Positions 41,917-59,924 of a stretch of 64,000 nt of DNA are shown here, in pieces (position 1 is the first letter of the stretch; each line of letters begins with the position of its first letter). The translations under genes and the position numbers were made by a program. The DNA is from Candidatus Limnocylindrales bacterium (GTDB taxonomy: Bacteria > Moduliflexota > Moduliflexia > Moduliflexales > JAUQPW01). The stretch spans positions 1 to 64,000 of the forward strand of contig DATMBG010000042.1 of NCBI GenBank assembly GCA_035559535.1. Reading direction: 5' to 3'. Under the pieces are notes generated by a model. The model was not told where the DNA came from. It saw only the letters and a list, made by a program, of their open reading frames with translations, and ran no database searches.

Positions 41917-42348
41917 ATGTCAAAGGCCCTTTTGAAAAAAATGGGAATTCTAGGGACCTATTTTTCTACCACTTTTGCCCTGGGTTGCTGCGGATTTGGT
42001 CCGTTTCTTTATCTGGTGTCAGGGCTTTCGGCTCTAGGTCTGGGGTTCTTGGCTAATTTGTCGTTACCGATTCTGTATACCTCCTTGGGAATGACGGTAG
42101 TCGGGCTTTTGATCTCCTATCGCCATCATCGCCATCCTTTACCCTTCATCTTAGGTCTGGTTGGCTCCGGTATGATTCTCTATCCTTTCCATGAAGCCCT
42201 GGATGTCTGGATTTTCCGGATTTTTTTCTCTACAGGCCTGGCTCTGTTAACCCTGGGGGTTATTTGGGACTTGATAAATCCCAGGAGATGGCTGCATAAA
42301 GGATTGAGACAAGGAGAAGGCTGGACCCCTTCCCTACTACGAAGGTAG
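41917..42348 (+). CDS. MerC-like mercury transporter
   Basis: Four TM segments, Cys pair in TM1 (LGCCG), SYRHHRHPLPFILG loop. Confidence 0.7.
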   Translation: MSKALLKKMGILGTYFSTTFALGCCGFGPFLYLVSGLSALGLGFLANLSLPILYTSLGMTVVGLLISYRHHRHPLPFILGLVGSGMILYPFHEALDVWIFRIFFSTGLALLTLGVIWDLINPRRWLHKGLRQGEGWTPSLLRR

Positions 42349-42506
42349 AGGTTGATGACTTCTCAGTTACGTTCTTCTCGTTGAATCTGCCTCGCTCTTT
42401 ACTTCCACTGAGATTTTGCCGATCTGTTCCAATCGAAATCACTCACCTGGTTTAGAGTCGGTCAGGTTGCCGGGTTAAAAAATTTAAAATTTTTTCCCAT
42501 AGATGA

Positions 42507-42534
42507 TAACCATTTTCATGTTTTAAGGATTTCT
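42507..42534 (+). promoter_or_regulatory. Candidate ECF sigma promoter, copy 2, directly upstream of the ECF gene
   Basis: TAACCATT-N11-AGGATTTCT ending 31 nt before the sigma ATG. Confidence 0.6.
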
Positions 42535-42565
42535 ATTTACAAAGTAGGTAAAGCCATAGGGGATC

Positions 42566-43150
42566 ATGGGGTATTCGTTTAATAAAATGACCGATGAAGA
42601 GCTCATGGCTCAAGTTCAGAGGGGGGATCAGGCTGCCTTTGAGGAATTATTCAAACGCTACGATCGAAAAATCTTCAATTACTTCCTTCGTTACCTGGGA
42701 GATGAAGAGTTGGCTAAAGACCTTTTTCAAGAAACCTTCCTCCGGGTGTTTCAATTCAGCAAGTCCTATAAGCCGACCACTCACAGTGGACGTTCCTCTT
42801 CTTTTGCAGCCTGGCTCTATACCGTTGCCCGGAATGTGTATAGAAAACAATGGGGACGAGAACCGGTTGAGGGGCGTATGGGAGAGTCCACGTGGGAGAT
42901 GTTAGAAGAAGTTCCAACCCCTAACGCCACGCCTCAGCAGGCAAGGGCCGATCAGGAATTGGTGGAAAAGATCAAACAGGCCCTGGACGCCCTTCCTGAA
43001 AGCCAGCGGGAGGTGGTGATCCTTCATAAGTATCAGGGACTCAGTTATCCTCAAATCGCTCAAGTCCTGGGATGCTCGATAAGTTCTGTGAAGCAAAGGG
43101 CTTTCAGAGCCTATCAGAGCCTCAGGCAGCAATTAGCCGAATATGCCTAA
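42566..43150 (+). CDS. ECF RNA polymerase sigma factor
   Basis: TDEELM, GDQAAFEEL, DLFQETFL, FAAWLYTVARN, LPESQREVV..GLSYPQIA. Confidence 0.93.
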   Translation: MGYSFNKMTDEELMAQVQRGDQAAFEELFKRYDRKIFNYFLRYLGDEELAKDLFQETFLRVFQFSKSYKPTTHSGRSSSFAAWLYTVARNVYRKQWGREPVEGRMGESTWEMLEEVPTPNATPQQARADQELVEKIKQALDALPESQREVVILHKYQGLSYPQIAQVLGCSISSVKQRAFRAYQSLRQQLAEYA

Positions 43151-44084
43151 AGAAGAAGGTGAAACGAACATGTGTAACTCCATTGTTGAACAACTGCCCG
43201 CTTATATCGCCGGGGAGCTGGGGGCTGAAGAGAGGGGAGAAGTAGAAAGACATCTGGCTCACTGCGTCTCCTGCACTTCAGAGCTTAAAGCCTTTCAGAG
43301 AACCTGGGATCTGCTGGATCAATGGGAGGATGTGGTCCCATCTCAGGAGCTTCGGAACAGTGTCCTGGCTCAAGTTCAGAAATTAACCGATGCCAAAAGG
43401 ACCAGAAGAGTCGATGGGTGGAGGTACTTTAAAGGCTTTTCCCACATTGTGTATGGCACCTTGACAGCCGTCCTTTCTGTGTTGCTTCTGGTTAGTAAGG
43501 GCGACCCGGCGGGTCGCCCCTACACAGAACCGTTAACCCTTGAGTTTATTCTGGGCTTTAGTGTACTCTGGACCGGCCTTTATATCCTGGCTTTCTGGTT
43601 GGCCGCCGGGAGGGGAGATCCGACAGTTTCACCTGTAAACTTCGATAAAGTCTTTGGACCTGTAGACTTAGCCCGTATTACCTATGTAGGATTGGTTGCC
43701 ATTGTCATTTCCCTGGTTATCTCCTGGCTGGTTCCCATCCACAGTGTCGTAAAATTCTGTCTAACCCAACCCGGCTTGCAGGGGATCAAGGATAAAATCT
43801 CCATAACCGGGTTCTATTTTCTGTTTGGAGGATTGTATGCCTGGATTCCCTTGCTGATGGTAGCTTCCTTTGAAGGAAGAAAAGTCTCTGGGAGCCCTGT
43901 CAGCTACGGGGTATTAACCGGGGTTATCTTTGTGCTCTTAATGGTACCGGGAATTTTCCTTCAATGTGGCTCTTTAACCCTGGGTATGCTGGTAAGTTGG
44001 ATCTTAGGGACGGCATTGGGATCCATGGCCGGGGGTGTTACCGGCTATTGGATCGCGTTCCGGACCCGGGAGGTTTCCTTATGA
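43143..44084 (+). CDS. Zinc-binding (zf-HC2/ZAS) anti-sigma factor with multi-pass membrane domain
   Basis: HLAHCVSC (HxxxCxxC); overlaps the ECF stop codon; about 6 TM helices with two loop Cys. Confidence 0.82.
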   Translation: MPKEEGETNMCNSIVEQLPAYIAGELGAEERGEVERHLAHCVSCTSELKAFQRTWDLLDQWEDVVPSQELRNSVLAQVQKLTDAKRTRRVDGWRYFKGFSHIVYGTLTAVLSVLLLVSKGDPAGRPYTEPLTLEFILGFSVLWTGLYILAFWLAAGRGDPTVSPVNFDKVFGPVDLARITYVGLVAIVISLVISWLVPIHSVVKFCLTQPGLQGIKDKISITGFYFLFGGLYAWIPLLMVASFEGRKVSGSPVSYGVLTGVIFVLLMVPGIFLQCGSLTLGMLVSWILGTALGSMAGGVTGYWIAFRTREVSL

Positions 44085-44320
44085 CCGAACAAACCTGTAA
44101 TCGGCTCATGAAAACAGGAATGATTGGAGCCATCCTTGCGGCTATCTGCTGTTTTACCCCGGTTTTGGTTATCTTACTGGGCTTGGTGGGACTCAGTACC
44201 GTAGTAGGCTACCTGGACTATGTTCTCATTCCGGCCCTGGGAGCATTTGTGATTCTGGCCGCGTATGCGGTCATTAAAAAGAGACAGTTAGCCTGTTCCG
44301 ATATTCCTAAGGAGGTTTAG
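44081..44320 (+). CDS. merF: MerF mercury transporter
   Basis: GAILAAICCFTPVLVILLGLVGLS..GYLDYVLIPAL; start ATG 44081. Confidence 0.9.
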   Translation: MTEQTCNRLMKTGMIGAILAAICCFTPVLVILLGLVGLSTVVGYLDYVLIPALGAFVILAAYAVIKKRQLACSDIPKEV

Positions 44321-44323
44321 CCG

Positions 44324-45157
44324 ATGAAAACGATTACGACTTTTTCAGCTTTGATTCTCTTTTTAATAGGATCCTTTGTTTTACAGAATATGGTTGCAGC
44401 GGACGTCCCGCTTCAAAAAACAGTTCTCAAAATCCAAGGCATGGTCTGCGAAGCATGTCCGCCCAAGATTAAAAAAGCCCTGGAAGGGTTAGATGGCGTG
44501 AAGAAAGTAGAGGTTAGCCTGGAGAAGGCCGAAGCCTATGTGGAATCGGAACCGGGAAAAGTTACCACCGAACAGATGATACAGGCAGTGGACCAGGCCG
44601 GATTTAAAGCTTCTCCGGCAGCAGAGAATTTTTCAGAGATAACCTTGAAGGTGGAGAATATCAAAGGACCCGAAGATGAGCTTAAGATCAAGCCGGCCTT
44701 GGAGAAGATAGAAGGGGTGAGAAAGGCTTTAGTCGATGCCGAGAAAAAAGAGGTGTTTATAGACTATCTAAAGGATAAGGTAACGGTTCAACAGCTCACC
44801 CAGTCTTTAACCAAGCTAGGCTATCCCCCTCTTTCCCCCTTAACGACCCAGGTAGGGGATTTCCTGGTAACCTTACAGATCCATCCAAAACCTATCAAAG
44901 ACCAGGAAGTCCATTTTGACGTAATCTTACAGAGCTCTGATGGGAAACCTGTCTCCGATGCAGAGGTTCAAGTGGATTTGAGTATGCCCGGGATGACCAT
45001 GGGGGAGATGCGATTTAAAGCGGAACCCGCCGGAGAGGGACGGTATACAGGAAAAGGGAAGTTTTCCATGGAGGGCAAATGGAGAATTGCCATCCGAATT
45101 AATCAAGGGGGACAGAAAAAAATCGCCAACTTCGATATGGAGGTTCCTGAGCAGTAG
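44324..45157 (+). CDS. Exported MerP-like HMA protein: HMA (GMVCEAC), Cys-less HMA and YtkA/FixH-like domain
   Basis: Signal peptide; GMxCxxC; second ferredoxin-like repeat with GPED; LSMPGMTMG...GRYTG..FSMEGKW. Confidence 0.82.
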   Translation: MKTITTFSALILFLIGSFVLQNMVAADVPLQKTVLKIQGMVCEACPPKIKKALEGLDGVKKVEVSLEKAEAYVESEPGKVTTEQMIQAVDQAGFKASPAAENFSEITLKVENIKGPEDELKIKPALEKIEGVRKALVDAEKKEVFIDYLKDKVTVQQLTQSLTKLGYPPLSPLTTQVGDFLVTLQIHPKPIKDQEVHFDVILQSSDGKPVSDAEVQVDLSMPGMTMGEMRFKAEPAGEGRYTGKGKFSMEGKWRIAIRINQGGQKKIANFDMEVPEQ

Positions 45158-45210
45158 GGGGTAGGGCGTTGGCCCGTTGGCCGGCAAATACCCAAAAAGG
45201 GGGTGTTCCC

Positions 45211-45735
45211 ATGAAAGATTTAAAAAAAATTTTATTAAGCCTTTTATTAACCTTTACTCTCATAGCTGCCTTCCTTCCTAAGGCAACTGTTGCCGAAATT
45301 GAAAAGGCTGTTATTAAAGTCAAGGGAACTTTGAGGTGTGTATTCTGAGCTTATGGGATTGACAAATCCGTGGGACGCCTGGAAGGCGTCAAGAAATCTG
45401 AGACCGATTGGAAAGCCGGTTTAACCGTGGTTACCTTCAAGGAAGGGGCCTCGTTGGATCCCAATCAACTGGCAAAAGCCATGGACGCAGCCGGATTTGG
45501 AGCGGATGAGATTACCCTTATCGCCAGGGGAAGCCTGACCGAAGAGAAAGGCTATCCGGCCTTTAAGGTCAGTGGCAGTAATCAAATTTTTCTGCTGGCA
45601 GAGAACGAAGTCCTCAACCAACTTAAAGCCTTGGGCTCCGGGAAAGAAGCAACAATCACAGCCAAAGTGGAGATGAAAGAAGAGGGGACTCCATTTACCC
45701 TGATCCTTGAAAAGGTTGAGTCGCCTACCCTGTAG
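45211..45735 (+). CDS. Exported HMA domain protein; candidate selenoprotein (CVFU, U46)
   Basis: ATG 45211 with signal peptide reads ...VKGTLRCVF*AYGIDKSVGRLEGV; TGA 45346-45348 is in frame with ORF 45370-45735 and aligns with Cys in in-window paralog 58613 (PYCAYGLEK). Confidence 0.85.
45349..45390 (+). promoter_or_regulatory. Candidate SECIS hairpin(s)
   Basis: GGATT-GACA-AATCC, then perfect GACGCCT-GGA-AGGCGTC after the UGA. Confidence 0.5.
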
Positions 45736-45821
45736 GTTGAATTTTGTCTGTTATCCCTGGTCGATTGTCCGGGGTTAAAGGCAAAGAACAAAAAACAACG
45801 GACAACAGACCAGGTTGAGTA

Positions 45822-46883
45822 ATGGGAGAGTTTCTTAAAGAAGTTCTAATATTTATCTATGCCACAGCTAACCATACCTTTTTAATGATGTATTGGGTTT
45901 GGCTTCCGGCTTTTCTCCTCTCCGGCTACCTGTTCACCCGATGGCATCGGGATCCGGTTGATAAGATTCTGCAGGATCGGACCTTGACCTTTAACTCTCT
46001 TTTGCAGGCTGTCAAGTTAGGTGCCTCTTATTCCACGGACCGTCGTAAGGGGCTGGCGGCTGTTGTGGGTTTATTTGAAAAAGGGGTGGTCCCTTTTCCC
46101 CTGATTTTCGCGTTCTGGCTCGCAAGCCAGCACCTGATTCTTTATTCCCTCTCCTTTTTCATGGCCCTGGTTGGAGGCGAGTTCTTTGTGGGACCTGCCG
46201 TGGCCGCGTTGGCTATGATAAGCTTGACAACCCTTTTCTTGAGCCAGATTCCCGAGAATACCTGGGAAGAGGCCAGGAAGCGGTTACGTATCTCCTCACC
46301 CTCCATCCCCCTCTCCCAAAGCTTTGGGAGAGGGGACATAAGGGGTGTGGGTAACCCTCTTCCACAAAGCTGGGGAGGATATTTTCGATATGTAGGCAGG
46401 GAGATCAAAGTGATCTGGAAGAACGTCATCTTGGGGATTATTCTGGCAGGGTTTATTGCGGCCGCCGGACGAACCGAATGGTGGATAGATTTCTCAACAG
46501 TGGGCGGTGGCGGAGTTTTCACGGAAATTTTAAACGTAATTCTCGGAGCGACTATTTCTCTGGTCATCCCCTTATCCCCGGTGGGACATCTCTTCGTAGC
46601 TGCTTTCCTTTGGAAAACCTATACCGTAACCTACGGAGGGATTTTGGGCTTTTTTCTGGCCAGCGCCCTGGACCTCAGAAATTTCTGGGCTTATGGGAAG
46701 CTCCTGGATCCCAAACTGGGGTTGACCGTGGAAGCTTTGGGATTTGCCTCGGCCATCCTGGGTGCTTTGGTCGTGGTGGTCCTGCTCCGGATCGTGGGAT
46801 TTGAAGTAACCCACGCTCCGTTGTTCCATGAGTACGTGGATAAGATCATGATGTTCTTCTCCCTGGGGGGAAAGATGATGTAA
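45822..46883 (+). CDS. Predicted permease (DUF318/ArsP-like architecture)
   Basis: Two TM bundles separated by a soluble loop; IWKNVILGIILAGFIAA, YGGILGF. Confidence 0.6.
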   Translation: MGEFLKEVLIFIYATANHTFLMMYWVWLPAFLLSGYLFTRWHRDPVDKILQDRTLTFNSLLQAVKLGASYSTDRRKGLAAVVGLFEKGVVPFPLIFAFWLASQHLILYSLSFFMALVGGEFFVGPAVAALAMISLTTLFLSQIPENTWEEARKRLRISSPSIPLSQSFGRGDIRGVGNPLPQSWGGYFRYVGREIKVIWKNVILGIILAGFIAAAGRTEWWIDFSTVGGGGVFTEILNVILGATISLVIPLSPVGHLFVAAFLWKTYTVTYGGILGFFLASALDLRNFWAYGKLLDPKLGLTVEALGFASAILGALVVVVLLRIVGFEVTHAPLFHEYVDKIMMFFSLGGKMM

Positions 46884-46899
46884 AAGGAGGTAAGGAAAA

Positions 46900-47811
46900 G
46901 TGAAAAAGGTTATGCTTTATATGGCTCTATCCAGCTTTTTAATCCTGGGAAGTGCTTTCTCAACCCCTCACCCCTTTGGTCCCCCTCTCCCAAAGCTCTG
47001 GGAGAGGGGGAAGGGGGTGAGGGCTGCCACCCCAGATTGCCGAATTGCCTTCCATACCAAGAGGGGAGAGAAAGAATTTAGAATTTCTACCATTCGAATA
47101 GACGGAACAGATATAAAGGACCTGACCTCGGGCCACTGGGACAGTAATCCCTGGTTTTCTCCGGATGGAAAGCAAATCGTCTTTGACCGGGATGAGGAGA
47201 TTTATATCGCGAACACCGATGGAAGTGAGCCGAGAAATCTGACCCATAACCCAAAAGCTAACTCCTGCCCGACCATCGCTGGAGGTAAGGTCGCTTTCCA
47301 GACGAACCGGGATGGGAATTTTGCGATCTATGTGGTGAATACGGATGGAACCGGACTGCAACGATTGACCCAGGAACCATCTAACAATGCCTGTCCGGCC
47401 TTCTCTTCCGATGGAAAGCGACTCGCTTTTGTCTCGGATCGGAACGGCCCCATGGAGATCTACGTAATGAATATTGACGGAACCGGACTCAAACGGCTCA
47501 CTTCTAACGCTGGAAATAACATGGATCCCGCCTTCTCCCCCGATGGGAAAAAGATCGTCTTTACTTCGGACCGAGATGGAAACTTTGAGATCTACCTCAT
47601 GGACAGCGACGGCCATAATCAAACCCGGCTTACCTATAACAATACGTCCGATATCCAACCTGCTTTCTCTCCCGATGGGAAACAGATTGCCTATGAGCGG
47701 GGTGGCAATATTTATGTGATGGACCTTGAGAAACGAGAAGAAAGGCCACTGACCCAGGGAGCTGTATACCGGGGCGGTCCTTCCTGGGATCCTAACTGTG
47801 TTTCTGAATAA
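46900..47811 (+). CDS. Exported TolB-like PD40 beta-propeller protein
   Basis: Repeated PAFSPDGKxIxFxSDRDGNFEIYxM motifs; signal peptide. Confidence 0.88.
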   Translation: MKKVMLYMALSSFLILGSAFSTPHPFGPPLPKLWERGKGVRAATPDCRIAFHTKRGEKEFRISTIRIDGTDIKDLTSGHWDSNPWFSPDGKQIVFDRDEEIYIANTDGSEPRNLTHNPKANSCPTIAGGKVAFQTNRDGNFAIYVVNTDGTGLQRLTQEPSNNACPAFSSDGKRLAFVSDRNGPMEIYVMNIDGTGLKRLTSNAGNNMDPAFSPDGKKIVFTSDRDGNFEIYLMDSDGHNQTRLTYNNTSDIQPAFSPDGKQIAYERGGNIYVMDLEKREERPLTQGAVYRGGPSWDPNCVSE

Positions 47812-47827
47812 GGAAGGATAGAGTGCT

Positions 47828-48436
47828 ATGAAAAGTTTTAACCTTTTTTCAACCCTTCGACCAGCCTGTCCTGAGCGAAGCCGAAGGGCTCAGGACGCAG
47901 CCTGGCTGAGTATAGCTCTAACGCTTTTGATCTCGCTGTTTTCTTTACACCCAAGTTCGGTTTATGCTGAGGACCTTCGGAAAGTGACCATCAAGGTAGG
48001 TTGGATGCTCTGTGAAAAGTGACCTCCGGCGGTGAAAGCAGCTTTGGAGAAGCTGGAAGGTGTAAAAAAAGTTGAGGTCAGTCTGGAGAAGGCTTCAGCT
48101 TATGTGGAGTATGAGGCTAGAAAGGTCACTCCGGATCAGATGGTAGCGGCAGTGAACCAGGCGGGATATATGGCGTTTCTTCCTCCCAAGGATCTGGTGG
48201 AGATCACGTTAGCCATCGAAGGTCTCAAGGGTCCTGAGGATGAGCTGAAAATCAAACCGGCCCTGGAGAAGGTGGATGGGATCAGGAAGGCTTTGGTGTA
48301 TACAAAGGAAAAGGAGGTCTATGTGGAATATATGAAAAATCAGATTACCCTTCAACGGATCACTGAAGAGATCTCGAAACTGGGCTATAAGGTGATCCTG
48401 CCTTCTGTTGAAGGGAAAGAAAGGTGCCAAAGATAA
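47828..48436 (+). CDS. Exported MerP-like tandem HMA protein; candidate selenoprotein (CEKU, U65)
   Basis: ORFs 47828-48022 and 48032-48436 are in frame; WMLCEK*PPAVKAALEKLEGVKKVEVSLEKA aligns with paralog 44324 GMVCEACPPKIKKALEGLDGVKKVEVSLEKA. Confidence 0.9.
48023..48055 (+). promoter_or_regulatory. Candidate SECIS hairpin
   Basis: CTCCGG..GAAA..TTGGAG stem-loop, or the alternative CAGCTT-TGGAG-AAGCTG. Confidence 0.45.
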
Positions 48437-48457
48437 AATTTAACGAAGGTTTGATTC

Positions 48458-48691
48458 ATGAAATCGACCCAGGAAAAGAGAACCCTGAAGGGATATTTGC
48501 TTTTGGTCACGGCTTTTATTACCTGTCCCTGCCATCTCCCTTTAACGTTGGTTTTACTAGGGGGAACAGCTTGGGGTGGGTTTATCGCAGCAAACCAGAC
48601 GCTAATTTTTGTTGTAGCTCTGGTTTATTTCCTTTTTGCATTAGTTTTTGGTTTGAAAATCCTTAGCAAAGAAGTGGAGGATCGGTCATGA
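48458..48691 (+). CDS. merE: MerE-like mercury/methylmercury transporter
   Basis: GYLLLVTAFITCPCHLPL..LLGGTAWG, the MerE CPCHLP signature. Confidence 0.85.
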   Translation: MKSTQEKRTLKGYLLLVTAFITCPCHLPLTLVLLGGTAWGGFIAANQTLIFVVALVYFLFALVFGLKILSKEVEDRS

Positions 48692-48785
48692 GTTCCTAGT
48701 CCCTAGTCCTTTGCCTATAGTCCACACTCAGGTGAAGGACAAGGCATGAAGAACCCAAGTCGATCTCTAAAAGGAGGGTATTCAC

Positions 48786-49025
48786 GTGACGTCTAAAAAA
48801 GTCATTGTCTATAGTTCCACCGGTTGAGCCGCTTGTAAGCAGACGAAAGAGTTTCTTTCGCAAAAAGGGGTTGCGTTCACGGACATTAACGTTAGCGAGA
48901 ATCCGGAAGCTCTGGATGAAATGGTTCAGAAGGCTGGAGGAACCATGGCAACGCCTACGGTCCTCATCGGGGATGAGGTGGTCATAGGATTTAATCCCAA
49001 ACGATTGATGGAGCTTTTGGCTTAG
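48786..49025 (+). CDS. Glutaredoxin/NrdH-like protein; candidate selenoprotein (UAAC, U14); missing from the ORF track
   Basis: AAGGAGG SD, GTG start, MTSKKVIVYSSTG*AACKQTKEFLSQKGVAFTDINV...ATPTVLIGDEVVIGFNP; TGA 48825-48827. Confidence 0.9.
48844..48860 (+). promoter_or_regulatory. Candidate SECIS hairpin of the glutaredoxin
   Basis: Perfect CGAAAGA-GTT-TCTTTCG; loop G is 23 nt after the UGA. Confidence 0.55.
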
Positions 49026-49102
49026 GTGGCTTGTTGGTTAGGTCGTCAGGTTGGTCACCAGTAACCTGACGACCTGGCTACCCAAGCAAAGGAGGTCATT
49101 CT

Positions 49103-49762
49103 TTGAAAGCAGGAAAATTTAGTCTACTATCTACGCTGATGGCATTGATTTGTTGTTTTGGCCCTATAGCCCTATTGGCTATAGGGCTGGGAAGTGCCGG
49201 ATTAACCGTTGGCTTGTTAAAATATAAAAGGGTTTTTCTCTCTCTAGGTCTAACAGCTTTGGCTTTTTCCTATTATCTATACTTTCGAGAGAAGACCCGC
49301 TGTACCACCCAGGGATGCCAGATGGTCAACACGAGGTTTAACAAGGCCTTGTTGATCTTTTCAACCCTCACGGTCCTGACCTTTGTGGTTTTTTCTTATC
49401 TCCCTTACTCCCATGCCAATCATCCGTCATCGGACCAGGCAGCTTTGGTTGCCGCCGCTTCTACGCCTCAAGTGCTCTATTTTTGGGAACCCTGTCCCAC
49501 CTGCGCAGTCTTAAACCCCCTTGTAGAAAGCCTGGAGAAAACCTACCAGGGAAAAGTACGCTTCCGGTGGGTCAATATGATCACAGATGATGACTCGCTC
49601 CGGCTGGCCCGGCAGGAAAATCTAAAGGCAATTCCTTATCTGGTCTTTAAATCCGCGGATGGGCAGCCGGTGGACTATATCGTTGGTTTTTTTACTTACG
49701 AAACAGCCAAAGAGAAGATTGAAAATCTTTTAAAAAACAGAAAGCAAGATCAGAGAGGTTGA
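49103..49762 (+). CDS. MerT-like transporter fused to a thioredoxin domain
   Basis: ICCFGPIALLAIG, loop CTTQGC, three TMs, then WEPCPTC...AIP thioredoxin fold. Confidence 0.8.
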   Translation: MKAGKFSLLSTLMALICCFGPIALLAIGLGSAGLTVGLLKYKRVFLSLGLTALAFSYYLYFREKTRCTTQGCQMVNTRFNKALLIFSTLTVLTFVVFSYLPYSHANHPSSDQAALVAAASTPQVLYFWEPCPTCAVLNPLVESLEKTYQGKVRFRWVNMITDDDSLRLARQENLKAIPYLVFKSADGQPVDYIVGFFTYETAKEKIENLLKNRKQDQRG

Positions 49763-49842
49763 CGGTTAGAGAGGAAACGCAGTTATTCTCTCATCGCAAC
49801 CTATCTGAATAATCCAATAACAGCTAAGGAGGGATTAAGAAT

Positions 49843-50433
49843 ATGAGAAATCGGCCAAAACAAACCTTCGTTCCATGGGCAGTCCGCGTCATCCTGGGAA
49901 GTTTTATTCTTTTCATTTTGATGCTCTGGTTTGTAGTAAAACCTGGAGAGGCTGAGAATCAGGCTTTAAAAGCCCTTGGGGGATCAGAGGTTAAGGAAGC
50001 TCTAGAAGCCCCGGATTTTATCATACAAACTCCAGATGGAAAAGCGCTTCACCTGAAGGATTATCGGGGCAAGGCCATTCTCCTCAACTTTTGGGCGACC
50101 TGGTGTGGCCCTTGTGCCAAGGAGCTTCCTAAAATGGCCAAGCTTTATGAGCAGTATAAGGATAAAGGGTTCGTTCTGATAGGGGTATCCCTGGATTTTG
50201 GGAATCCGGAGGTGGTCAAAGCATTTCTGGAAGAACGTGGATTAAATTTTCCGGTTGGCATCGATACAGAAAAGGAGGCGGTTAAAGCCTATGGAGTTCG
50301 CGGACTTCCCACCAGTTATTTTATCAATCCACAGGGGAAGGTGGTTGGATGGCTGACAGGAGAGAGGGACTGGGAGGGTGAGGCCGCCCATCATTTAATC
50401 AAGTCCTTGTTAGACCAAGCCCCTAAGGGGTAA
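49843..50433 (+). CDS. TlpA/ResA family membrane-anchored disulfide reductase
   Basis: APDF, LNFWATWCGPCAKELP, YGVRGLPTS. Confidence 0.92.
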   Translation: MRNRPKQTFVPWAVRVILGSFILFILMLWFVVKPGEAENQALKALGGSEVKEALEAPDFIIQTPDGKALHLKDYRGKAILLNFWATWCGPCAKELPKMAKLYEQYKDKGFVLIGVSLDFGNPEVVKAFLEERGLNFPVGIDTEKEAVKAYGVRGLPTSYFINPQGKVVGWLTGERDWEGEAAHHLIKSLLDQAPKG

Positions 50434-50447
50434 ACCTCTCAATTTTT

Positions 50448-50580
50448 GTAACTATTCAGGCCCTCACCCCTAACCCCTCTCCCGAGGCTTCGGGAGAGGG
50501 GGAACGAGGAGAAGAGATTCTAACCTCTTACCCTCTCCTACAGCGTGGGAGAGGGGCTGGGGGTGAGGGTGAACAGTTAC
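50448..50580. repeat. MITE-like GTAACTATTCA...TGAACAGTTAC element containing CCCTCTCCC/GGGAGAGGG palindromes
   Basis: Inverted termini; palindrome family also at 19659-19700, 46294-46351, 46964-47023, 60705-60786. Confidence 0.65.
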
Positions 50581-50614
50581 CAAATTTTAAACCTTAACTT
50601 TAGAGGAGGAGACC

Positions 50615-51100
50615 ATGTTCAAAAAATTTAAAGTTTATACGTTCGGCATACCCCTATTAACCCTTGCATTAATGGGCATATTCATGCTCCCTACAAGCCT
50701 GATCCTGGCTCAGGATGGACGGGTCGAGAAGGTTTCTAATTCTCCATTTGATAAAACCATCAAACAACTGGAGGATGCGATCACGGCTAACAAAGTGATG
50801 GCTGTCAACAAAATTGACCATCAAAATATGCTCACCATGGTAGGGATGAACATCAAAGGGAGCAAAACGTATGAGGTGTTTCGCCCCGATTTTGGTAAGA
50901 TCCTTTTTGAGAGCAATCCCGCTGCCGGGTTGGAGATACCCTTAAGAATCTATGTCTACGAAAATAAGGAGGGAAAAACCGTGGTCAGTTACCATAAGCC
51001 TTCAGTGGCTCTGGCAGTTTACAAGAATCCCAAGCTGGATGAGCTGGGTAAGACTCTGGATGGCATTCTTCAGGCCATTGCCGATAGCGCCACAAAATAA
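50615..51100 (+). CDS. Exported DUF302 family protein
   Basis: Signal peptide; IDHQ, GLEIPLRIYVYE, VSYHKPS. Confidence 0.75.
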   Translation: MFKKFKVYTFGIPLLTLALMGIFMLPTSLILAQDGRVEKVSNSPFDKTIKQLEDAITANKVMAVNKIDHQNMLTMVGMNIKGSKTYEVFRPDFGKILFESNPAAGLEIPLRIYVYENKEGKTVVSYHKPSVALAVYKNPKLDELGKTLDGILQAIADSATK

Positions 51101-51188
51101 TTTAAATCCAGGGGTTAGTTGTTAGGGGCTGGGGATGAGTGCGGACCCCTAACCCCTTTAGTTTTACTTTGAAAGCGAGGTTAGTCTT

Positions 51189-51998
51189 ATGGTTGATAAA
51201 TTCCTTTATACTTCGATAATCCTTATGGCCATTGTAGCCTTCATAGTCGGAGGCGCTCTGGTGATCCTAGGGCTTATAAAAAGACATCGGCATACCAAAG
51301 AACTGCTGCTGACTTTGATAGTTCTGGCGAGTGTTGGAGTTTCTCCAAACCTTACCGTCTTCAGCCCGGCCGGGTTCATCTCCTGGAGCACGTATTTCTG
51401 GTATCTGGTAGTTCCAGGTTTCATCCTATTTATAGGGATCCTGATCTATGCCTATGTCTCCGGTGAGCAAAGGCTCTTCAACCGGATGTGGGCCGGGATG
51501 TGGGCTGGGTTCGCAGCGGCTATTGCTTTAGATATAGTACGACTCACGGGATTTAAGCTGGGTTACATGCCCGGCAACATGCCACGGATGTTCGGAGTTA
51601 TGATCTGGGGAAACATGCTGGAAGGCCCCAATGCCTTATCTGATTTTATTGGGTATGCCTACCATTTCTGGAATGGATGTGCCTTCGGGATTGTATACGC
51701 CCTAATTTTCGGCAAGACAAGCTGGATCGGTCCCTTAATCTACTCAGCGGCTTTTGTTGAGATCGGGATGATGATTAGCCCGGCCATGCTCTCCATGGGA
51801 GTGGGACCCTTTGGGATCAACTTTGGTCCGGGGTTGTTTATGGTAAGCCTATTAGCTCATATTGCCATGGGTATCGTGATGGGAGTTATCCTCCAGCGAT
51901 ATGTCCGGGACCAGGGTACGATTCTGAAGTTGCTCCCCTTTGGGGAAGAAAGGTCAGGGGAAGTGCTGACGGGCTATGGTCAAACTTCCAGAAGCTGA
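51189..51998 (+). CDS. Hypothetical multi-pass membrane protein, Met/His-rich
   Basis: About 7 TM segments; MPGNMPRMFG, YHFWNGC, AHIAMG. Confidence 0.7.
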   Translation: MVDKFLYTSIILMAIVAFIVGGALVILGLIKRHRHTKELLLTLIVLASVGVSPNLTVFSPAGFISWSTYFWYLVVPGFILFIGILIYAYVSGEQRLFNRMWAGMWAGFAAAIALDIVRLTGFKLGYMPGNMPRMFGVMIWGNMLEGPNALSDFIGYAYHFWNGCAFGIVYALIFGKTSWIGPLIYSAAFVEIGMMISPAMLSMGVGPFGINFGPGLFMVSLLAHIAMGIVMGVILQRYVRDQGTILKLLPFGEERSGEVLTGYGQTSRS

Positions 51999-52092
51999 AA
52001 GGGCAGCTGGAAAACCAGTGTGGGAGTATGGAGGTGTGGGAGTGCGGGAATTACTCCCACACCTCTATACTCCCACACCAGTCGAGGTTCTT

Positions 52093-53529
52093 ATGAAGCA
52101 AAAAGAAAAGCCATCACATTACGATTTAGTCATCCTGGGATCCGGTTCGGCAGCTTTTGCTGCGGCCATCAAAGCCTCTGAATTAGGGGCTCGGGTGGCC
52201 ATGACGGAAAGCCGGGTCGTGGGTGGGACCTGTGTCAACCGGGGATGTATCCCGAGTAAAAACCTGATTCGAGCCGCTGAGATTTATTACAGCGCTCGTA
52301 ACCAGCCCTTTGACGGCATTGAGCTGGAGCAGAAAAGGTTGGACTTTGGTCGTCTCATCGCCCAGAAGGATGAGCTGGTAGAGCGGCTCCGATACAAAAA
52401 ATATATCAGCATTGCCGAAGAGGATGAGCGAATAACTATCTTTACCGGACCAGCCCGGTTCATCTCCCCCCATCAGGTTCAGGTTGGGGATCAAGTTCTT
52501 CAAGCAGAGAAGTTCCTCATTGCCACAGGAGGGAGAACCCAGATTCCCGATATTGAAGGATTATCGGAAGTGGGGTACCTCACCAGCGATTTGCTGGCCA
52601 GCGGGGAGAGCATGGAGCTCAAGGAATTACCTCAATCTTTGCTGATTATTGGAGGGGGATATATCGCAGCGGAACTGGGTCAGATGTTCCAGCGGTTCGG
52701 AACGCAGGTCACGATGATCGAGCGAGGATCCCGGCTCATCAAAACTTTTGATGAAGAAGTGGCGGCGGTTTTAAGGAAGGTCCTGGAGGAAGAAGGGGTG
52801 AAGCTGGTGTTTGAGGCAAATCTGGTTAAGGTTATCCAACAAGAAGGGCAGGTTCGTCTGACCGTTGAAGTCAGGGGTCAGAAACAAGATCTGGTCGGTG
52901 AGAAGCTGTTGTTAGCTACCGGTGTTGTACCTAACACGAAGGATCTGGGCTTAGAAAAGGTGGGCGTTAAGCTCGACCCGCAAGGCTTTGTGAAAGTGAA
53001 CGAAGAAATGAGAACCACGGCTTCCCATATCTGGGCGGCAGGGGATGTGACCGGAGCGCCTTTAGCCACGCCGGTGGGAGCCCGGGAAGGGGTGGTGGCC
53101 GCTGAGAACATGCTGAACCCCAAGGCTCATAAAAAGATGGACTATTGGGCCATTCCGAGGGCGATCTTTACCGATCCAGAGGTAGCCAGCGTAGGATTAA
53201 CGGTTCAGCAGGCCAGAGATCAAGGCTATGAGGTAGATGCTAACTGCCTGGATCTGGCCCATGTCCCCAAGGCGGCTGCCATTCGGGATACTCGGGGGCT
53301 GGTGAAAATGGTCATGGATAAAAAGACCCGACAGGTTTTAGGAGTCCATTTGATAGCCCATCGGGGAGCGGACATCATCCATGAAGCGGCCCTGGCGGTT
53401 AAGTTTAAGCTCACAGCGGATGATCTCATCGAAACGGTTCATGTTTATCCAACCCTATCCGAGGCTATCCGGATGGTGGCCCAGACGTTTACAAAGGATG
53501 TCTCTAAGCTGAGCTGCTGTGCCGAGTAG
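52093..53529 (+). CDS. merA: Mercuric reductase without NmerA domain
   Basis: GSGSAAFAAA, GGTCVNRGCIPSK, HVYPTLSE, C-terminal LSCCAE; start corrected to ATG 52093. Confidence 0.93.
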   Translation: MKQKEKPSHYDLVILGSGSAAFAAAIKASELGARVAMTESRVVGGTCVNRGCIPSKNLIRAAEIYYSARNQPFDGIELEQKRLDFGRLIAQKDELVERLRYKKYISIAEEDERITIFTGPARFISPHQVQVGDQVLQAEKFLIATGGRTQIPDIEGLSEVGYLTSDLLASGESMELKELPQSLLIIGGGYIAAELGQMFQRFGTQVTMIERGSRLIKTFDEEVAAVLRKVLEEEGVKLVFEANLVKVIQQEGQVRLTVEVRGQKQDLVGEKLLLATGVVPNTKDLGLEKVGVKLDPQGFVKVNEEMRTTASHIWAAGDVTGAPLATPVGAREGVVAAENMLNPKAHKKMDYWAIPRAIFTDPEVASVGLTVQQARDQGYEVDANCLDLAHVPKAAAIRDTRGLVKMVMDKKTRQVLGVHLIAHRGADIIHEAALAVKFKLTADDLIETVHVYPTLSEAIRMVAQTFTKDVSKLSCCAE

Positions 53530-56062: not shown

Positions 56063-56098
56063 CCAGACACTTAAGTGACCCCAAAAGGAGGTAAATCC

Positions 56099-56752
56099 AT
56101 GGAAAAGAAAAAATTAGACCTGGAGGAGATAGTTGCCCTGATAAGGAATTCATTACCAAAACTCAGCGCAGAAGAGCAAAAGGTTTTTGTACAAATATAT
56201 CGGCTTTTGGCCGTAGGTCAACCCGTGCCCCATGACAAAAAGCCACAAACGCTTCACGTCTCAAATGACGTTGTAAACGATATTCTGAGTCGATGGTGGG
56301 GGATCTATTATGATGAAAAAGATCGTATCATAGGGTTTTGGGGACTGACCCTAAAACCCATGTCACACCGTTTTGAGGTCAACGGTCATACGCTGTACAC
56401 CTGGTGCGCCTGGGATAGTTTATTTATCCCTGAGATTATCCAGAAAACTGCTCGTGTAGAGTCTACCTGTCCTGTGACGGGAGCCAAGATCCGGCTTACG
56501 GTAACCCCGAAAGACGTCAAGCAACTCGACCCGGCTGGTGCCGTTATGTCTTTTATAACACCAGAAGCTGCCAAAATTCGCGAGAATGTGATTGCCAACT
56601 TTTGCCACTACGTGTATTTTTTCAGTTCTGCGGAAGCAGGTACTACCTGGATTTCAAAGACCCCGGGAACCTTCCTTCTTTCCATAGATGAGGCCTATTA
56701 CCTTGGGCGAAAGAAAAATGAGTTTCAGTTCAAGGAGGCTTTAGTAATGTAG
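56099..56752 (+). CDS. merB: Organomercurial lyase
   Basis: YTWCAWD (catalytic Cys/Asp), STCPVTG, FCHYVYFF; GGAGG SD before ATG 56099. Confidence 0.9.
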   Translation: MEKKKLDLEEIVALIRNSLPKLSAEEQKVFVQIYRLLAVGQPVPHDKKPQTLHVSNDVVNDILSRWWGIYYDEKDRIIGFWGLTLKPMSHRFEVNGHTLYTWCAWDSLFIPEIIQKTARVESTCPVTGAKIRLTVTPKDVKQLDPAGAVMSFITPEAAKIRENVIANFCHYVYFFSSAEAGTTWISKTPGTFLLSIDEAYYLGRKKNEFQFKEALVM

Positions 56753-57173: not shown

Positions 57174-58178
57174 ATGAATAACTCTAACAAAGGAAAAATT
57201 ATCTTTGTCTCCATGGCTTTGGTCCTTCTGGCCATAACCGTGATTGGGCTCTTTTCCCTGGCCACGTCTCCGGCTCAGGCCGCCAGTCTCACGCTGGCTT
57301 ACGTAGCCGGACTTTCAATGATCCTGTTACCGTGTACGTTACCTGCTCTGCTTGTAATCGTTCCACTATCCATGGGCAAGGGCTATCAAAAGGGTTTTCT
57401 TATCGCTTTGTTCTTTTCCATTGGAATGGCGATCACACTGACTGCCTATGGAGTAGCTATGGCAGCCCTAGGGAAGATCCTCTATCTGGACCGGGCGACC
57501 CTTTTGATGTGGTTGGTCGCGGGACTGGCGGCTTATCTCTTTGGGCTGTCGGAGTTAGGATTAATTTCCTATAAAGGACCGTCCTATTCCGGGTCTCTGC
57601 CTGGTTTTATGGCAGGATCACCGACTAATTATTTCAAAGCCTTTTTGATGGGAATTCTACTTGGAAACGCCGGGATCGGCTGCCCCAATCCGGCCTTCTA
57701 TGTGTTGCTAACCTATATAGCTGGAATAGGAAACCTTATGACAGGAGGGATTCTTGGACTCATTCATGGTCTTGGCCGCGCCACACCTCTCCTGGCCATC
57801 TCGATCCTGGCCATTTGGGGAGTCAATTCCATGGGGTGGATCCTTAACAAGAAGGAGGCACTGCAACAACTGGTGGGGTGGGGGCTTATTGGTTTTGCCG
57901 CTCTCATCACCCCAAAACCCATCTTCGGCCATGCCTGGTGGGAAGAGTCTATTTTTCATAAAGTTTGGAATAGGGTAGTAATGATTATCGGTGGTGAGCA
58001 GATTGCCGAAAGCGCTTATGTGGAAAAGCAACTGGGCGATATGCCAGTTCATGACCCGTTGCTGCTCTATGGCCCCTGGATCTTTCTGGCCCTGCTAATT
58101 GTAATTCCAATCCTTTGGGGCTATGCTAAAAACCTTCAAAAGAAGGAGGTAAATAGGTATGTGGAAAAAACCGCTTAA
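57174..58178 (+). CDS. CcdA/DsbD-TM family protein
   Basis: AGLSMILLPCTLP and GIGCPNP transmembrane Cys pair. Confidence 0.8.
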   Translation: MNNSNKGKIIFVSMALVLLAITVIGLFSLATSPAQAASLTLAYVAGLSMILLPCTLPALLVIVPLSMGKGYQKGFLIALFFSIGMAITLTAYGVAMAALGKILYLDRATLLMWLVAGLAAYLFGLSELGLISYKGPSYSGSLPGFMAGSPTNYFKAFLMGILLGNAGIGCPNPAFYVLLTYIAGIGNLMTGGILGLIHGLGRATPLLAISILAIWGVNSMGWILNKKEALQQLVGWGLIGFAALITPKPIFGHAWWEESIFHKVWNRVVMIIGGEQIAESAYVEKQLGDMPVHDPLLLYGPWIFLALLIVIPILWGYAKNLQKKEVNRYVEKTA

Positions 58179-58362
58179 GATTTTGGGTGTGATAGCACTG
58201 CTGGTTCTGATGCCGGTTCTGGTGCAGGCTCATGGCGATGACCAGGTAACGGTAAATAGCCTCTTCGGCCCACTCCTAGCCATTTTTACGATTTTCATCC
58301 TTGTCCCTCTAGGTAAGGTCGCTATTCGAGGGATCAAGAAGCAGAAGGAGGAGAGAATATGA
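58159..58362 (+). CDS. Small hypothetical membrane protein
   Basis: AAGGAGGT SD; signal-like segment ending VQA-HGDD plus one TM. Confidence 0.65.
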   Translation: MWKKPLKILGVIALLVLMPVLVQAHGDDQVTVNSLFGPLLAIFTIFILVPLGKVAIRGIKKQKEERI

Positions 58363-59906: not shown

Positions 59907-59924
59907 TACCTTTAAAGGATCATA

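Follow-up and report, generated by a model that had tools for sequence, protein, structure and literature searches.

Between a MerE-like transporter gene and a gene for a MerT-like domain fused to thioredoxin, the window (the whole stretch of 64,000 nucleotides of DNA that was analysed) carries a glutaredoxin reading frame with an in-frame UGA at codon 14, referred to here as Sec-Grx (Table 1). The Shine-Dalgarno region, GTG start, 79-codon frame, YSSTG-TGA-AAC stretch, cis-Pro motif TPT and GF motif claimed in a preliminary description of this DNA were all recovered in their places, as were the two mer neighbours. The cis-Pro region reads ATPTV (P57) and the GF motif occupies residues 68–69; P57, G68 and F69 are invariant among 11 Sec homologs. 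Purine-rich sites lie 12–13 codons 5' of the Sec codon in most of these 11 homologs and are weak or absent in some of them, for example L036 and L030. Ordinary gene finders miss the gene because the stop-like UGA codon lies inside the frame: with table 11, only shadow ORFs are obtained at the locus, namely the one already described at 48805–48987 (+) and a second at 48696–48863 (−).

Table 1 Features of the mer cluster and of the Sec-Grx gene, in order of position in the window.
Feature	Position	Strand	Remarks
MerC-like	41917–42348	+	cluster start
ECF sigma-like ORF	42566–43150	+	assigned by eye only; resembles, by eye, the sigma-70 match of locus L017
Anti-sigma zf-HC2	43143–44084	+	with the ECF sigma-like ORF, forms the sigma/anti-sigma pair
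MerF	44081–44320	+	in cluster start region 41917–44320
Secreted HMA protein	45211–45738	+	in-frame TGA 45346–45348, C-x-x-U; NF041115 25 bits
Secreted double-HMA protein	47828–48439	+	in-frame TGA 48020–48022, C-E-K-U; NF041115 94.9 bits, cut-off 95
MerE-like transporter	48458–48691	+	upstream neighbour of Sec-Grx; PF05052 2e-9; NF010310 47.1 bits, under cut-off 80
Shine-Dalgarno region AAAGGAGGG	48770–48778	+	GGAGG at 48773–48777, GTG 8 nt further on
Sec-Grx coding sequence	48786–49025	+	79 sense codons; GTG start, TAG stop at 49023–49025
UGA codon 14	48825–48827	+	YSSTG-U-AAC; aligned with first Cys of CxxC
SECIS-type hairpin	48843–48861	+	7 perfect pairs 48844–48850/48854–48860, loop GUU 48851–48853
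13-bp perfect inverted repeat	49040–49075	.	10-nt spacer; between Grx stop and merT-trx
MerT-like membrane domain fused to thioredoxin domain	49103–49762	+	PF02411 33.2 bits (cut-off 32.9), PF00085 29.6 bits
MerA core without NmerA	51976–53529	+	Cys-Cys pair at end; TIGR02053 542.7 bits, cut-off 454.45
MerB (alkylmercury lyase)	56075–56752	+	PF03243 115.7 bits; sole MerB found in genome

The surrounding mer cluster, which also has TlpA-like and CcdA-like genes, carries an ECF sigma/anti-sigma pair in place of MerR. Its MerA lacks the NmerA domain, as had been noted earlier: residue 49 corresponds to position 1 of the TIGR02053 model, the PRK13748 match starts from model position 90, and the protein has no HMA match. 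A terminator scan found no terminator-like site between merE, grx and merT, and both promoter and terminator scans of the locus were at chance level. The inverted repeat downstream of the Grx stop is not followed by a T-run, is not terminator-like in the scan and is degenerate in the same-genus ortholog.

In a profile search, translated Sec-Grx matched the Pfam Glutaredoxin family PF00462 (58.3 bits vs a cut-off of 22.9, E 8.7e-16), and a match to PDB entry 7c10_A (E 1.3e-13) aligned Sec-14 with the catalytic Cys. An AF2 model (pLDDT 90.3) shows the order beta-alpha-beta-alpha-beta-beta-alpha and superposes on 7c10_A in Foldseek with TM 0.89/0.93, an rmsd of 1.0 Å and 43% identity, in agreement with the initial assignment of a Grx-fold gene whose Sec is the nucleophile of UxxC. 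The protein has no signal peptide and strand beta-1 begins at residue 6; Sec-Grx, predicted at 8.6 kDa for the full-length product, is thus cytoplasmic, as had been proposed, with helix 1 carrying the U-A-A-C site at its N-terminal end.

Among NCBIfam models, none scored over its cut-off for Sec-Grx. By score it belongs neither to the YruB family (TIGR02196, 78.4 bits, under the cut-off of 88.55) nor to the NrdH-redoxins (TIGR02194, 57.1 bits, under 85.75), which are its best NCBIfam similarity and share the GF motif and a short form lacking the helix extension that binds GSH at the C-terminus, but have Cys where the window protein has Sec; moreover, the window locus has no nrd or rubredoxin context. 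The UXX-star glutaredoxin-like selenoproteins (NF041212, NF041211, NF041114) reach 64.6 bits, under the cut-off of 66, over model positions 1–65 of 70; Sec-Grx ends in ...MELLA, without UXX-stop, and lacks the Sec three residues before the C-terminus. SaoT (NF040730) was absent from the 20 families found at E <= 0.01 in the NCBIfam search, and PF00403, which stands for the HMA fold with GMxCxxC, gave no match in Sec-Grx, the likeness to NmerA, MerP and CopZ being functional only. A search of 5.8 billion protein clusters returned two matches at E <= 1e-10, one of which has Trp at the UGA position.

The protein kind is already known, because the closest solved relative, cGrx1 of Clostridium oremlandii (43% identity), is a proven selenoprotein; our literature searches did not turn up a description of Sec-Grx in a mer-operon context. 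Kim et al. 2011 reportedly studied cGrx1 experimentally as a selenoprotein Grx. The 7c10 structure is the native selenoprotein with Sec replaced by Cys (PMC7642778). cGrx1 (PDB 7c10/7c12) shares with the window protein its length, its fold, a Sec placed first in U/CxxC and a K-E-F-L-S stretch following that site, the active site being U-P-H-C in cGrx1 and U-A-A-C here.

Is UGA-14 read as selenocysteine? The genome of the window encodes the complete Sec machinery (selC, selA, selB and selD), which the preliminary description had named beforehand as a refutation test: a tRNA-Sec was found at 74.5 bits (ARAGORN call SeC/TCA), with SelA at 540 bits, the SelB wing domain at 75.7 bits and SelD at 388.6 bits, the latter with an in-frame TGA of its own. 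A global reassignment of TGA was rejected, since TGA ends 9 of the 30 window ORFs of >=250 aa. The TGA recurs at the same Grx codon at seven sites spread over 4 of 61 genomes, at 28 of 80 loci from species genomes (mapped by alignment, the remaining 52 being Cys-type) and at 64 of 80 metagenome loci (the remaining 16 Cys-type); both locus samples were drawn through peptide patterns and the loci are mutually related, so that these Sec and Cys counts are not independent trials. A same-genus ortholog with 92% identity differs at 17 codons, 12 synonymous and 5 non-synonymous, the changes being distributed 3/1/15 over the three codon positions, which indicates purifying selection on both sides of the TGA. 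Additionally, the genome holds a second, non-mer copy of Sec-Grx (G000:C6). For DnaK, the nearest titled relative is from a Candidatus Moduliflexus MAG (79%), with mostly Acidobacteriota next (68–78%), a weak indication of taxonomic placement.

The hairpin downstream of the UGA begins its stem 16 nt past this codon and reaches its loop 23 nt past it; the perfect 7-bp stem with a GTT loop was confirmed, the 23 nt given earlier being the distance to the loop. The hairpin encodes residues T-K-E-F-L-S, and an eighth, outer pair is A.C in the genus of the window. By itself it is not beyond chance: shuffled sequences fold as well as the 59-nt segment (-13.8; z -0.22), and a second hairpin of the same 7-bp/3-nt make-up occurs by chance at 48962–48978. 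Its significance comes instead from the conservation of TGA plus hairpin across homologs. In 11 sequences, 95.5% of cells are paired and two pairs show compensatory change (C-G to A-U in three sequences, A-U to U-A in two); the covariation score was reached by 0 of 500 shuffles, and slid controls were 41–72% paired. At least 7 of 8 stem positions pair in 26 of the 28 Sec loci from species genomes compared with 0 of 52 Cys loci, and a local MFE <= -7.5 is found in 25/28 and 0/52, respectively; among the 16 Cys forms of the metagenome set, which is pattern-biased, 4 keep >=7/8 pairs. Part of this conservation is coding constraint, because the hairpin overlaps the conserved peptide KEFLS.

Measured against the bSECIS model as given in PMC13188914 (loop of 3–9 nt with G among its first two nucleotides, stem of 4–16 bp, spacing of 16–37 nt, MFE <= -7.5), the window hairpin fits with its GUU loop, 7 bp and 23 nt and misses with its local MFE of -6.3, which places it among the weakest of the Sec loci. 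Rfam gave no SECIS or other relevant family at E <= 10 within 44000–50000; the matches in this interval are palindromes at 46299–46344 and 46973–47018.

The unexceptional 59-nt fold and the missing Rfam SECIS match would both suit a reading in which UGA-14 stops translation and the Grx frame downstream is a decayed pseudogene or is internally started. Such a frame, however, would not be expected to show selection on both sides of the TGA, nor to keep the TGA at the exact codon in 28 + 64 loci together with a co-varying hairpin; after codon 14 there is no in-frame start able to preserve the active site, and the Sec machinery of the genome is complete. We consider this reading very improbable, and predict with high confidence that 48786–49025 is a real selenoprotein gene of the cGrx1 type.

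The association of Sec-Grx with mer genes extends well beyond the window. At 13 of 28 Sec loci vs 0 of 52 Cys loci in species genomes, MerT/F/E/C or MerB is encoded in the same orientation no more than 4 kb away, and a metagenome replicate gave 22/64 and 0/16; the MerB, MerF, MerE and MerC neighbours score over their Pfam cut-offs. In the tree, the mer-linked copies are spread over at least 5 subclades, and the link is conserved across lineages in several phyla, so that Sec-Grx is a mer-operon member by conserved same-strand co-location. Its steady neighbours are small transporters and MerB, not MerA. The link also follows the active site: the middle residues of U-x-x-C are only G/A/S/Q/T in 39 of 92 Sec loci, 30 of these 39 being mer-linked, compared with 5 of the 53 Sec loci where Pro or bulky residues take these places. 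The window protein, with AA between Sec and Cys, belongs to the former class, and the small residues of the mer-linked copies may hint at a metal site.

One might still suppose that Sec-Grx has a housekeeping role and stands in the mer cluster by accident, since its homologs are also found in unrelated settings (SNF2 helicase/ABC-2, MMPL/peptidase, TetR/AhpD-like) and no mer gene is nearby at 15/28 Sec loci and at 42/64, many of the latter on contigs of 1–2 kb. Against this, the link recurs in several phyla and at least 5 subclades, with the gene immediately beside mer genes and in the same orientation; it occurs in 0 of 68 Cys-type loci; it tracks a distinct active-site dipeptide class; and the genome retains a separate non-mer paralog. 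We judge an incidental position to be quite unlikely, and dedication of Sec-Grx to the mer system to be likely.

Within the mer system, our best overall explanation, which we hold with even confidence, is a cGrx1-type Sec-Grx of a mer-operon subgroup that takes part in Hg(II) relay. UGA-14 would be decoded as selenocysteine, aided by the hairpin 16 nt downstream, and the selenolate would attack Hg(II) held on the cytoplasmic Cys pairs of the small transporters MerE, MerT and MerF/MerC or, alternatively, on MerB once the C-Hg bond is cleaved; a Se-Hg-S chelate would then be closed by the resolving Cys, freeing the partner. In the window genome, the next step would be transfer of Hg(II) to the NmerA-less MerA, whose C-terminal Cys pair would receive it for reduction. 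By established selenium chemistry, the selenolate is more nucleophilic and is ionised at neutral pH. Sec-Grx probably handles mercury ions on the inner membrane side and an Hg-shuttle reading is plausible; that it binds Hg, with which partners, and in which direction it passes the metal are our inferences, and direct Hg(II) exchange by this protein, rather than pure redox upkeep, is in our estimate evenly balanced. The strength of the Hg-Se bond may hinder ready transfer to thiols. Also weighing against a relay, the sole characterised relative, cGrx1, is a disulfide/selenenylsulfide reductase and not a metal carrier (PMC7642778).

Sec-Grx could instead be a dedicated reductant that keeps the Cys/Sec ligands of Mer proteins reduced and never carries Hg, its targets being MerB, the MerA tail and transporter Cys pairs, with periplasmic Sec-HMA proteins reached via CcdA/TlpA. 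Redox-active Grx/Trx proteins usually carry a Pro or aromatic residue between the two active-site residues; the mer-linked subgroup has lost it, which speaks against this role. cGrx1 is proposed (PMC7642778; review PMC13188914) to reduce a selenoprotein partner, as a GSH-recycled reductant that re-reduces Sec-containing MsrA; the window gene, by contrast, lies among mer genes and not beside msrA. Potential partners exist, in that the window cluster has other Sec proteins as well as its TlpA-like, Trx-fused MerT and CcdA-like genes, and at some mer-linked loci MerB and HMA proteins contain Sec; NC10-type loci, however, pair a Cys-containing MerB with a Sec-containing Grx. A CcdA/TlpA relay as conserved partner was rejected, because just 3 of the 28 Sec loci, the same-genus locus among them, have CcdA or TlpA next to Sec-Grx. 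A purely reducing role appears unlikely to us, though less so than an incidental position.

The preliminary description had suggested that Sec-Grx stands in for the missing NmerA domain; this is possible in this genus, where an NmerA-less MerA lies in the cluster, and cannot be the general role because none of 15 other genomes with a mer-linked Sec-Grx yielded a canonical MerA over the TIGR02053 cut-off, a count for which MAG completeness is not given. For the same reason, the last relay step, to MerA, is not general. NF010311 gave only flavoprotein matches of about 250–280 bits on five genomes, and seven of the best sub-threshold TIGR02053 matches keep the redox-active CxxxxC, lack the C-terminal Cys pair and have no mer neighbours. 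We propose, with considerable reserve as it is rather improbable, that Sec-Grx forms the cytoplasmic terminus of a mercury pathway that runs on selenium and needs no reductase. The module would comprise MerB, small Mer importers, Sec-MerP and Sec-Grx, without canonical MerA, in Methylomirabilota/NC10, Rokubacteria, Myxococcales, Nitrospirae-labelled, Syntrophobacteraceae and Verrucomicrobiota MAGs; Hg(II) or methylmercury would be taken up and neutralised on selenium, as a stable Se-Hg-S or as released HgSe. Selenium-mercury antagonism is known in animals, and such a pathway, if true, would be its bacterial counterpart.

Models of mercury resistance have the relay of imported Hg finish at NmerA or at bulk thiols, and NmerA is missing from many deep-branching MerA proteins; a conserved selenol-thiol protein encoded among transporters, MerB and MerA would be a concrete candidate for the cytoplasmic acceptor that is lacking. 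NmerA, reportedly described by Ledwidge et al. 2005 as the N-terminal HMA domain of MerA, would resemble Sec-Grx in offering a small cytoplasmic two-ligand site that passes Hg(II) from proteins to the MerA core. It differs in having an HMA ferredoxin-like rather than a thioredoxin fold and in being a dithiol, whereas Sec-Grx is a selenol-thiol on a separate polypeptide, and most genomes with a mer-linked Sec-Grx show no canonical MerA.

SaoT, a thioredoxin-like selenoprotein encoded at the SAO locus, is comparable in its small thioredoxin fold, its UxxC forms and its proximity to a MerB-family lyase (the MerB-like SaoL) and metal transporters, and is proposed in the preprint of Haft and Gwadz (10.1101/2022.07.06.499078) to touch a mercury-like metal. 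It is nevertheless of another family, and SAO is presented there as an ABC-transport system of anaerobes, argued to be non-resistance; the partners of the window Sec-Grx, unlike those at the SAO locus, are classical MerT/F/E/C, MerB and HMA proteins. Our literature searches gave no description of Sec-Grx in a mer context, and the supplementary alignments of 10.1101/2022.07.06.499078 could bear on a prior sighting.

Sec forms of Grx are nearly absent from protein databases and no NCBIfam model scores over its cut-off for Sec-Grx; therefore, the mer operons of several uncultured phyla are read with a hole. Selenium ligands in mercury-handling operons have been catalogued as MerT-like proteins (PF02411, C/SxxU) and the metal-binding UxxU family NF041115, which the two HMA proteins of the window match at 94.9 bits (cut-off 95) and 25 bits; a cytoplasmic Sec-glutaredoxin partner alongside these membrane and periplasmic parts did not come up in the accessible part of PMC13188914 or in our literature searches. 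Counting Sec-Grx and the two Sec-HMA genes, the cluster would hold three selenoproteins, which would link the selenium supply of these bacteria to the way they handle mercury. The in-frame TGAs of both HMA genes are conserved in the same-genus genome.

The UGA-containing glutaredoxin gene of the mer cluster (Sec-Grx) encodes 79 residues when its in-frame TGA is read as selenocysteine (Sec, U), with the UGA at codon 14 within the peptide YSSTG-U-AAC and a GTG start 8 nt 3' of a GGAGG motif. Translation table 11 yields shadow ORFs only at this place. On re-reading of the sequence, the frame, GTG, in-frame TGA, inverted repeat and shadow ORF (48805-48987) reported in a preliminary description were exact, confirming the observation of a UxxC glutaredoxin gene in the window. 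The proposed family also held with TGA read as U, since Pfam Glutaredoxin matched at 58.3 bits (E 8.7e-16); the best NCBIfam matches were all under cut-off (YruB, 78.4 vs 88.55; Uxx_star, 64.6 vs 66; NrdH, 57.1 vs 85.75). An AlphaFold model built from an 11-sequence alignment (pLDDT 90.3) has the order beta-alpha-beta-alpha-beta-beta-alpha, with residue 14 directly ahead of helix 15-26. Its top Foldseek matches were 3ic4 and 7c10_A, the latter with 43% identity, rmsd 1.0 Å and TM 0.89/0.93; 7c10_A was also the best solved-structure match (E 1.3e-13), Sec aligning with the first Cys of its C-P-H-C. This structure is Clostridium oremlandii Grx1 (cGrx1), which is natively a selenoprotein and was crystallised with Cys in place of its catalytic Sec (PMC7642778), and a 2026 review places Grx/PF00462/UxxC among the experimentally verified prokaryotic selenoproteins (PMC13188914). 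Sec-Grx is a genuine member of this already known family.

Searching 61 genomes with the Sec-Grx protein gave matches at E <= 1e-8 in 14. Seven of the matching loci, spread over four genomes, have exactly one TGA: the window's gene and its ortholog in the same genus (92% identity), a paralog present in each of the two genus genomes (58%), a pair of copies in G048 and a single copy in G014. In 7/7 of them the xxC site begins with the TGA. Window and ortholog differ at 17 codons, 12 of them synonymous (changes by codon position 3/1/15), and all but one lie 3' of codon 14. When species-representative genomes were scanned with a profile of the 11 sequences, we took the best 80 of 513 relatives, with TGA at the site in 28 (Sec loci) and Cys in 52 (Cys loci); 80 of 471 metagenome relatives gave 64 and 16, a ratio that is biased because one search pattern contains the KEFLS stretch. 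Sec forms are nearly invisible in the protein database, where the single Sec-Grx protein retrieved two matches at E <= 1e-10. The database protein P0002, encoded on a 445-bp contig, is 82% identical to the window's Grx and has Trp at the Sec position, the gene caller evidently having taken TGA as Trp. Among 121 proteins from two protein searches (the 120 best profile matches listed and P0003), the site residue is W in four, including P0002, and G in one, and the only names are 'glutaredoxin family', 'YruB-family' and 'NrdH'.

The preliminary description had hinged on Sec machinery being encoded, and the window's genome (58 contigs, 5.6 Mb, 95.8% complete) contains tRNA-Sec (74.5 bits, above the Rfam cut-off; SeC with anticodon TCA in ARAGORN), SelA (540 bits), the winged-helix domain of SelB (75.7 bits) and SelD (388.6 bits; G000:C29:76668-77594, L011). 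This SelD itself has one in-frame TGA, like Sec-containing selenophosphate synthetases. We rejected general reassignment of TGA, since it terminates 9/30 window ORFs of at least 250 aa. That the UGA of Sec-Grx is not read through is very improbable.

The hairpin 3' of the UGA is a perfect 7-bp stem with a GTT loop, as first described; the 23 nt then given is the UGA-to-loop spacing, the stem starting at 16 nt. By itself this hairpin is unremarkable: the 59-nt fold scored z = -0.22 against shuffles, and a chance hairpin of equal size (7 bp, 3-nt loop) lies in the same gene. Across 11 aligned Sec genes, the eight stem positions (nt 19-26 with 30-37, numbered from the U of UGA) are paired in 95.5% of cells, with compensatory changes at two pairs (A-U replacing C-G in three sequences and U-A replacing A-U in two) and a covariation score reached by 0/500 shuffles. 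Sliding the partner by 1-3 columns as a control left 41-72% paired and covariation nearly nil, and just 1-4 of the eight positions pair in 11 Cys homologs. At least seven of the eight pairs form at 26/28 Sec (exceptions L108 and L127) and 0/52 Cys genome loci, and at 63/64 Sec and 4/16 Cys metagenome loci; a local MFE of -7.5 kcal/mol or lower was found at 25/28 Sec and 0/52 Cys genome loci. Since the hairpin encodes T/A-K-E-F-L-S (E22, L24 and S25 invariant), its conservation is partly shared with the peptide. Compared with the bSECIS model of PMC13188914 (section 5), the hairpin of Sec-Grx agrees in its loop (GUU, beginning with G), its 7-bp stem and its spacing of 23 nt, but the local MFE, at -6.3, falls short of the model's -7.5, as this genus has A.C at the outer pair. 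Four Cys-type glutaredoxins (L232, L268, L288, L290) retain 7-8 of the eight pairs and are possibly recent Sec-to-Cys conversions.

The cluster runs in the order MerC-like, ECF sigma-like ORF (identified by eye), zf-HC2 anti-sigma, MerF, HMA+YtkA, secreted HMA with C-x-x-U, ArsP-type permease, PD40 protein, secreted double HMA, MerE, Sec-Grx, MerT fused to thioredoxin, TlpA-like redoxin, DUF302, membrane protein and MerA. No terminator-like site was found between merE, grx and merT. The cluster holds three candidate selenoproteins, and a same-genus genome has identical gene order and the same three TGAs. MerA passes TIGR02053 (542.7 bits) and has the C-terminal Cys pair; its alignment with PRK13748 starts at model position 90 and it has no HMA domain, bearing out the earlier claim that it lacks this N-terminal domain (NmerA).

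Features of the window in and around the mer cluster
Feature	Position	Strand	Detail
All genes of the span	41917-53529	+	
Paralog of double-HMA protein	44324-45157	+	C-E-A-C in place of C-E-K-U
Secreted HMA protein	45211-45738	+	TGA 45346-45348, second ligand position, R-C-V-F-U, kept in same-genus genome; 7-bp hairpin, GGA loop, about 30 nt past TGA
Palindromes, near-identical	46299-46344, 46973-47018		within ArsP-permease and PD40 ORFs
Secreted double-HMA protein	47828-48439	+	TGA 48020-48022, C-E-K-U, kept in same-genus genome; NF041115 (metal-binding selenoprotein) 94.9 bits, cut-off 95
Shadow ORF	48696-48863	-	
GGAGG	48773-48777		
Sec-Grx	48786-49025	+	TGA 48825-48827; TAG 49023-49025
Shadow ORF	48805-48987	+	
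Hairpin arms	48844-48850, 48854-48860		
Chance hairpin	48962-48978		
Inverted repeat	49040-49075		13 bp, perfect, 10-nt spacer, just 3' of Grx stop, no T-run; degenerate in same-genus genome
MerB	56075-56752		sole MerB of genome
CcdA/DsbD-like membrane proteins	57174-58178, 59925-60614		by eye only
Thioredoxin-like protein	58359-58616		by eye only; 85 residues, G-C-S-R-C
Small HMA-like protein	58613-58927		by eye only

A protein search with MerT-Trx led to loci in Methylomirabilis, Binatia and NC10 MAGs with the order ArsR, MerB, Sec-Grx, MerT, and the 80 genome loci were searched with the mer proteins of these and of the window. MerT/F/E/C or MerB lay within 4 kb on the same strand at 13/28 Sec and 0/52 Cys genome loci, and nearby at 22/64 Sec and 0/16 Cys metagenome loci (13/34 and 0/12 where one side spans at least 1.5 kb), counts over related sequences sampled through peptide patterns that are not independent trials. 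Beyond these 13, the Sec locus L096 has only MerR and Sec-HMA nearby. Independently, Pfam placed MerB (five), MerF (five), MerE (two) and MerC (one) over cut-off at linked loci; MerT there was under the Pfam cut-off. Linked loci are labelled Syntrophobacteraceae, Methylomirabilis, Udaeobacter, Nitrospirae, Rokubacteria, Methylomirabilota, Myxococcales and NC10, and in a tree of weak resolution (89 rows, 78 columns; near-duplicates L016 and L030 omitted) the mer label requires six changes and is found in at least five subclades, and the Cys label requires five changes. Several linked operons carry additional TGAs, in HMA proteins (G-M-T-U-G-T-U, C-S-S-U) and MerB.

Linkage also follows the active site. 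With both sets pooled (92 Sec loci), the Sec-x-x-Cys dipeptide consists only of G, A, S, Q or T in 39, and 30 of these 39 are mer-linked vs 5/53 with Pro or a bulky residue; the window's AA belongs to the small-residue class, whereas the PH of cGrx1 lies outside it. Redox-active Grx/Trx/NrdH sites normally have Pro or an aromatic residue between the active-site residues, and its loss may, judging from sequence, point to a site for ligand exchange or metal binding.

The preliminary description suggested that Sec-Grx could stand in for NmerA. This fits the window's genus, with its NmerA-less MerA in the cluster, but does not generalise, since MerA over the TIGR02053 cut-off was found in 0/15 other genomes with mer-linked Sec-Grx (MAGs, completeness not given), where the best scores were 373-400 bits vs a cut-off of 454.45. 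Seven of the best sub-threshold proteins (L130-L136, 374.7-399.7 bits) are MerA-like flavoproteins that retain the redox-active CxxxxC, with the C-terminal Cys pair in 0/7 and no mer neighbours; five end in W-L/F-A-W-(T/H)-R. Because MerA is not general, the steady neighbours of mer-linked Sec-Grx are small importers and MerB, and a CcdA/TlpA relay was rejected as a conserved partner (it is not conserved together with the gene), we rank Hg(II) exchange above a dedicated reductant, an incidental housekeeping Grx and absent read-through, in that order. With moderate confidence, we infer that the selenol-thiol site of mer-linked Sec-Grx would exchange Hg(II) with the cytoplasmic Cys pairs of transporters and likewise with MerB, and would then feed MerA in genomes having one. 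A dedicated reductant would have a precedent in cGrx1, the proposed reductant of Sec-MsrA (PMC7642778), and is a doubtful second; a housekeeping Grx beside mer genes by accident is improbable, and a reductase-free selenium sink is left with whatever likelihood the other four readings do not take up.

Among the papers listed by full-text literature searches, none dealt with selenocysteine glutaredoxins of mer operons. In the portions covered of Boyd and Barkay 2012 (PMC3466566), glutaredoxin, thioredoxin and selen- do not occur, and in those of Christakis et al. 2021 (PMC8261052) the one mention of glutaredoxin concerns a MerA-like enzyme of Synechocystis that Grx1 controls. Haft and Gwadz, in their preprint, note MerT-family selenoproteins and describe SaoT, which is another thioredoxin-like Sec protein, distinct from Sec-Grx, and neighbours the MerB-like SaoL. 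As far as these searches show, a mer-operon-dedicated Sec-Grx subgroup with a distinct active-site dipeptide has no earlier description.

Additionally, the genome has a second Sec-glutaredoxin (G000:C6:139309-139530, L029; 58% identity, U-R-P-C), flanked by an SNF2 helicase and an ABC-2 permease with no mer neighbours, whose hairpin shows compensatory changes. Translated in frame, the two palindromes give a P-L-P-K-L-W-E-R-G type insert, and Rfam returned only spurious miRNA-like matches there. The genes 3' of MerB, which include apparent NHL-type repeat proteins, may extend the cluster by a thiol relay (57174-60614); of these, the CcdA-like protein at 57174-58178 and the one of 85 residues again adjoin Sec-Grx in L096. 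In Myxococcales and Rokubacteria MAGs, MerB (L088, 3399-3989; L120, 2362-2955) has an in-frame TGA (S-L-U-T-T), by eye at the Cys position of the window's MerB (N-F-C-H-Y); read through, it matches Pfam MerB at 106 bits, and the adjoining MerP-like genes encode G-M-T-U-G-T-U.
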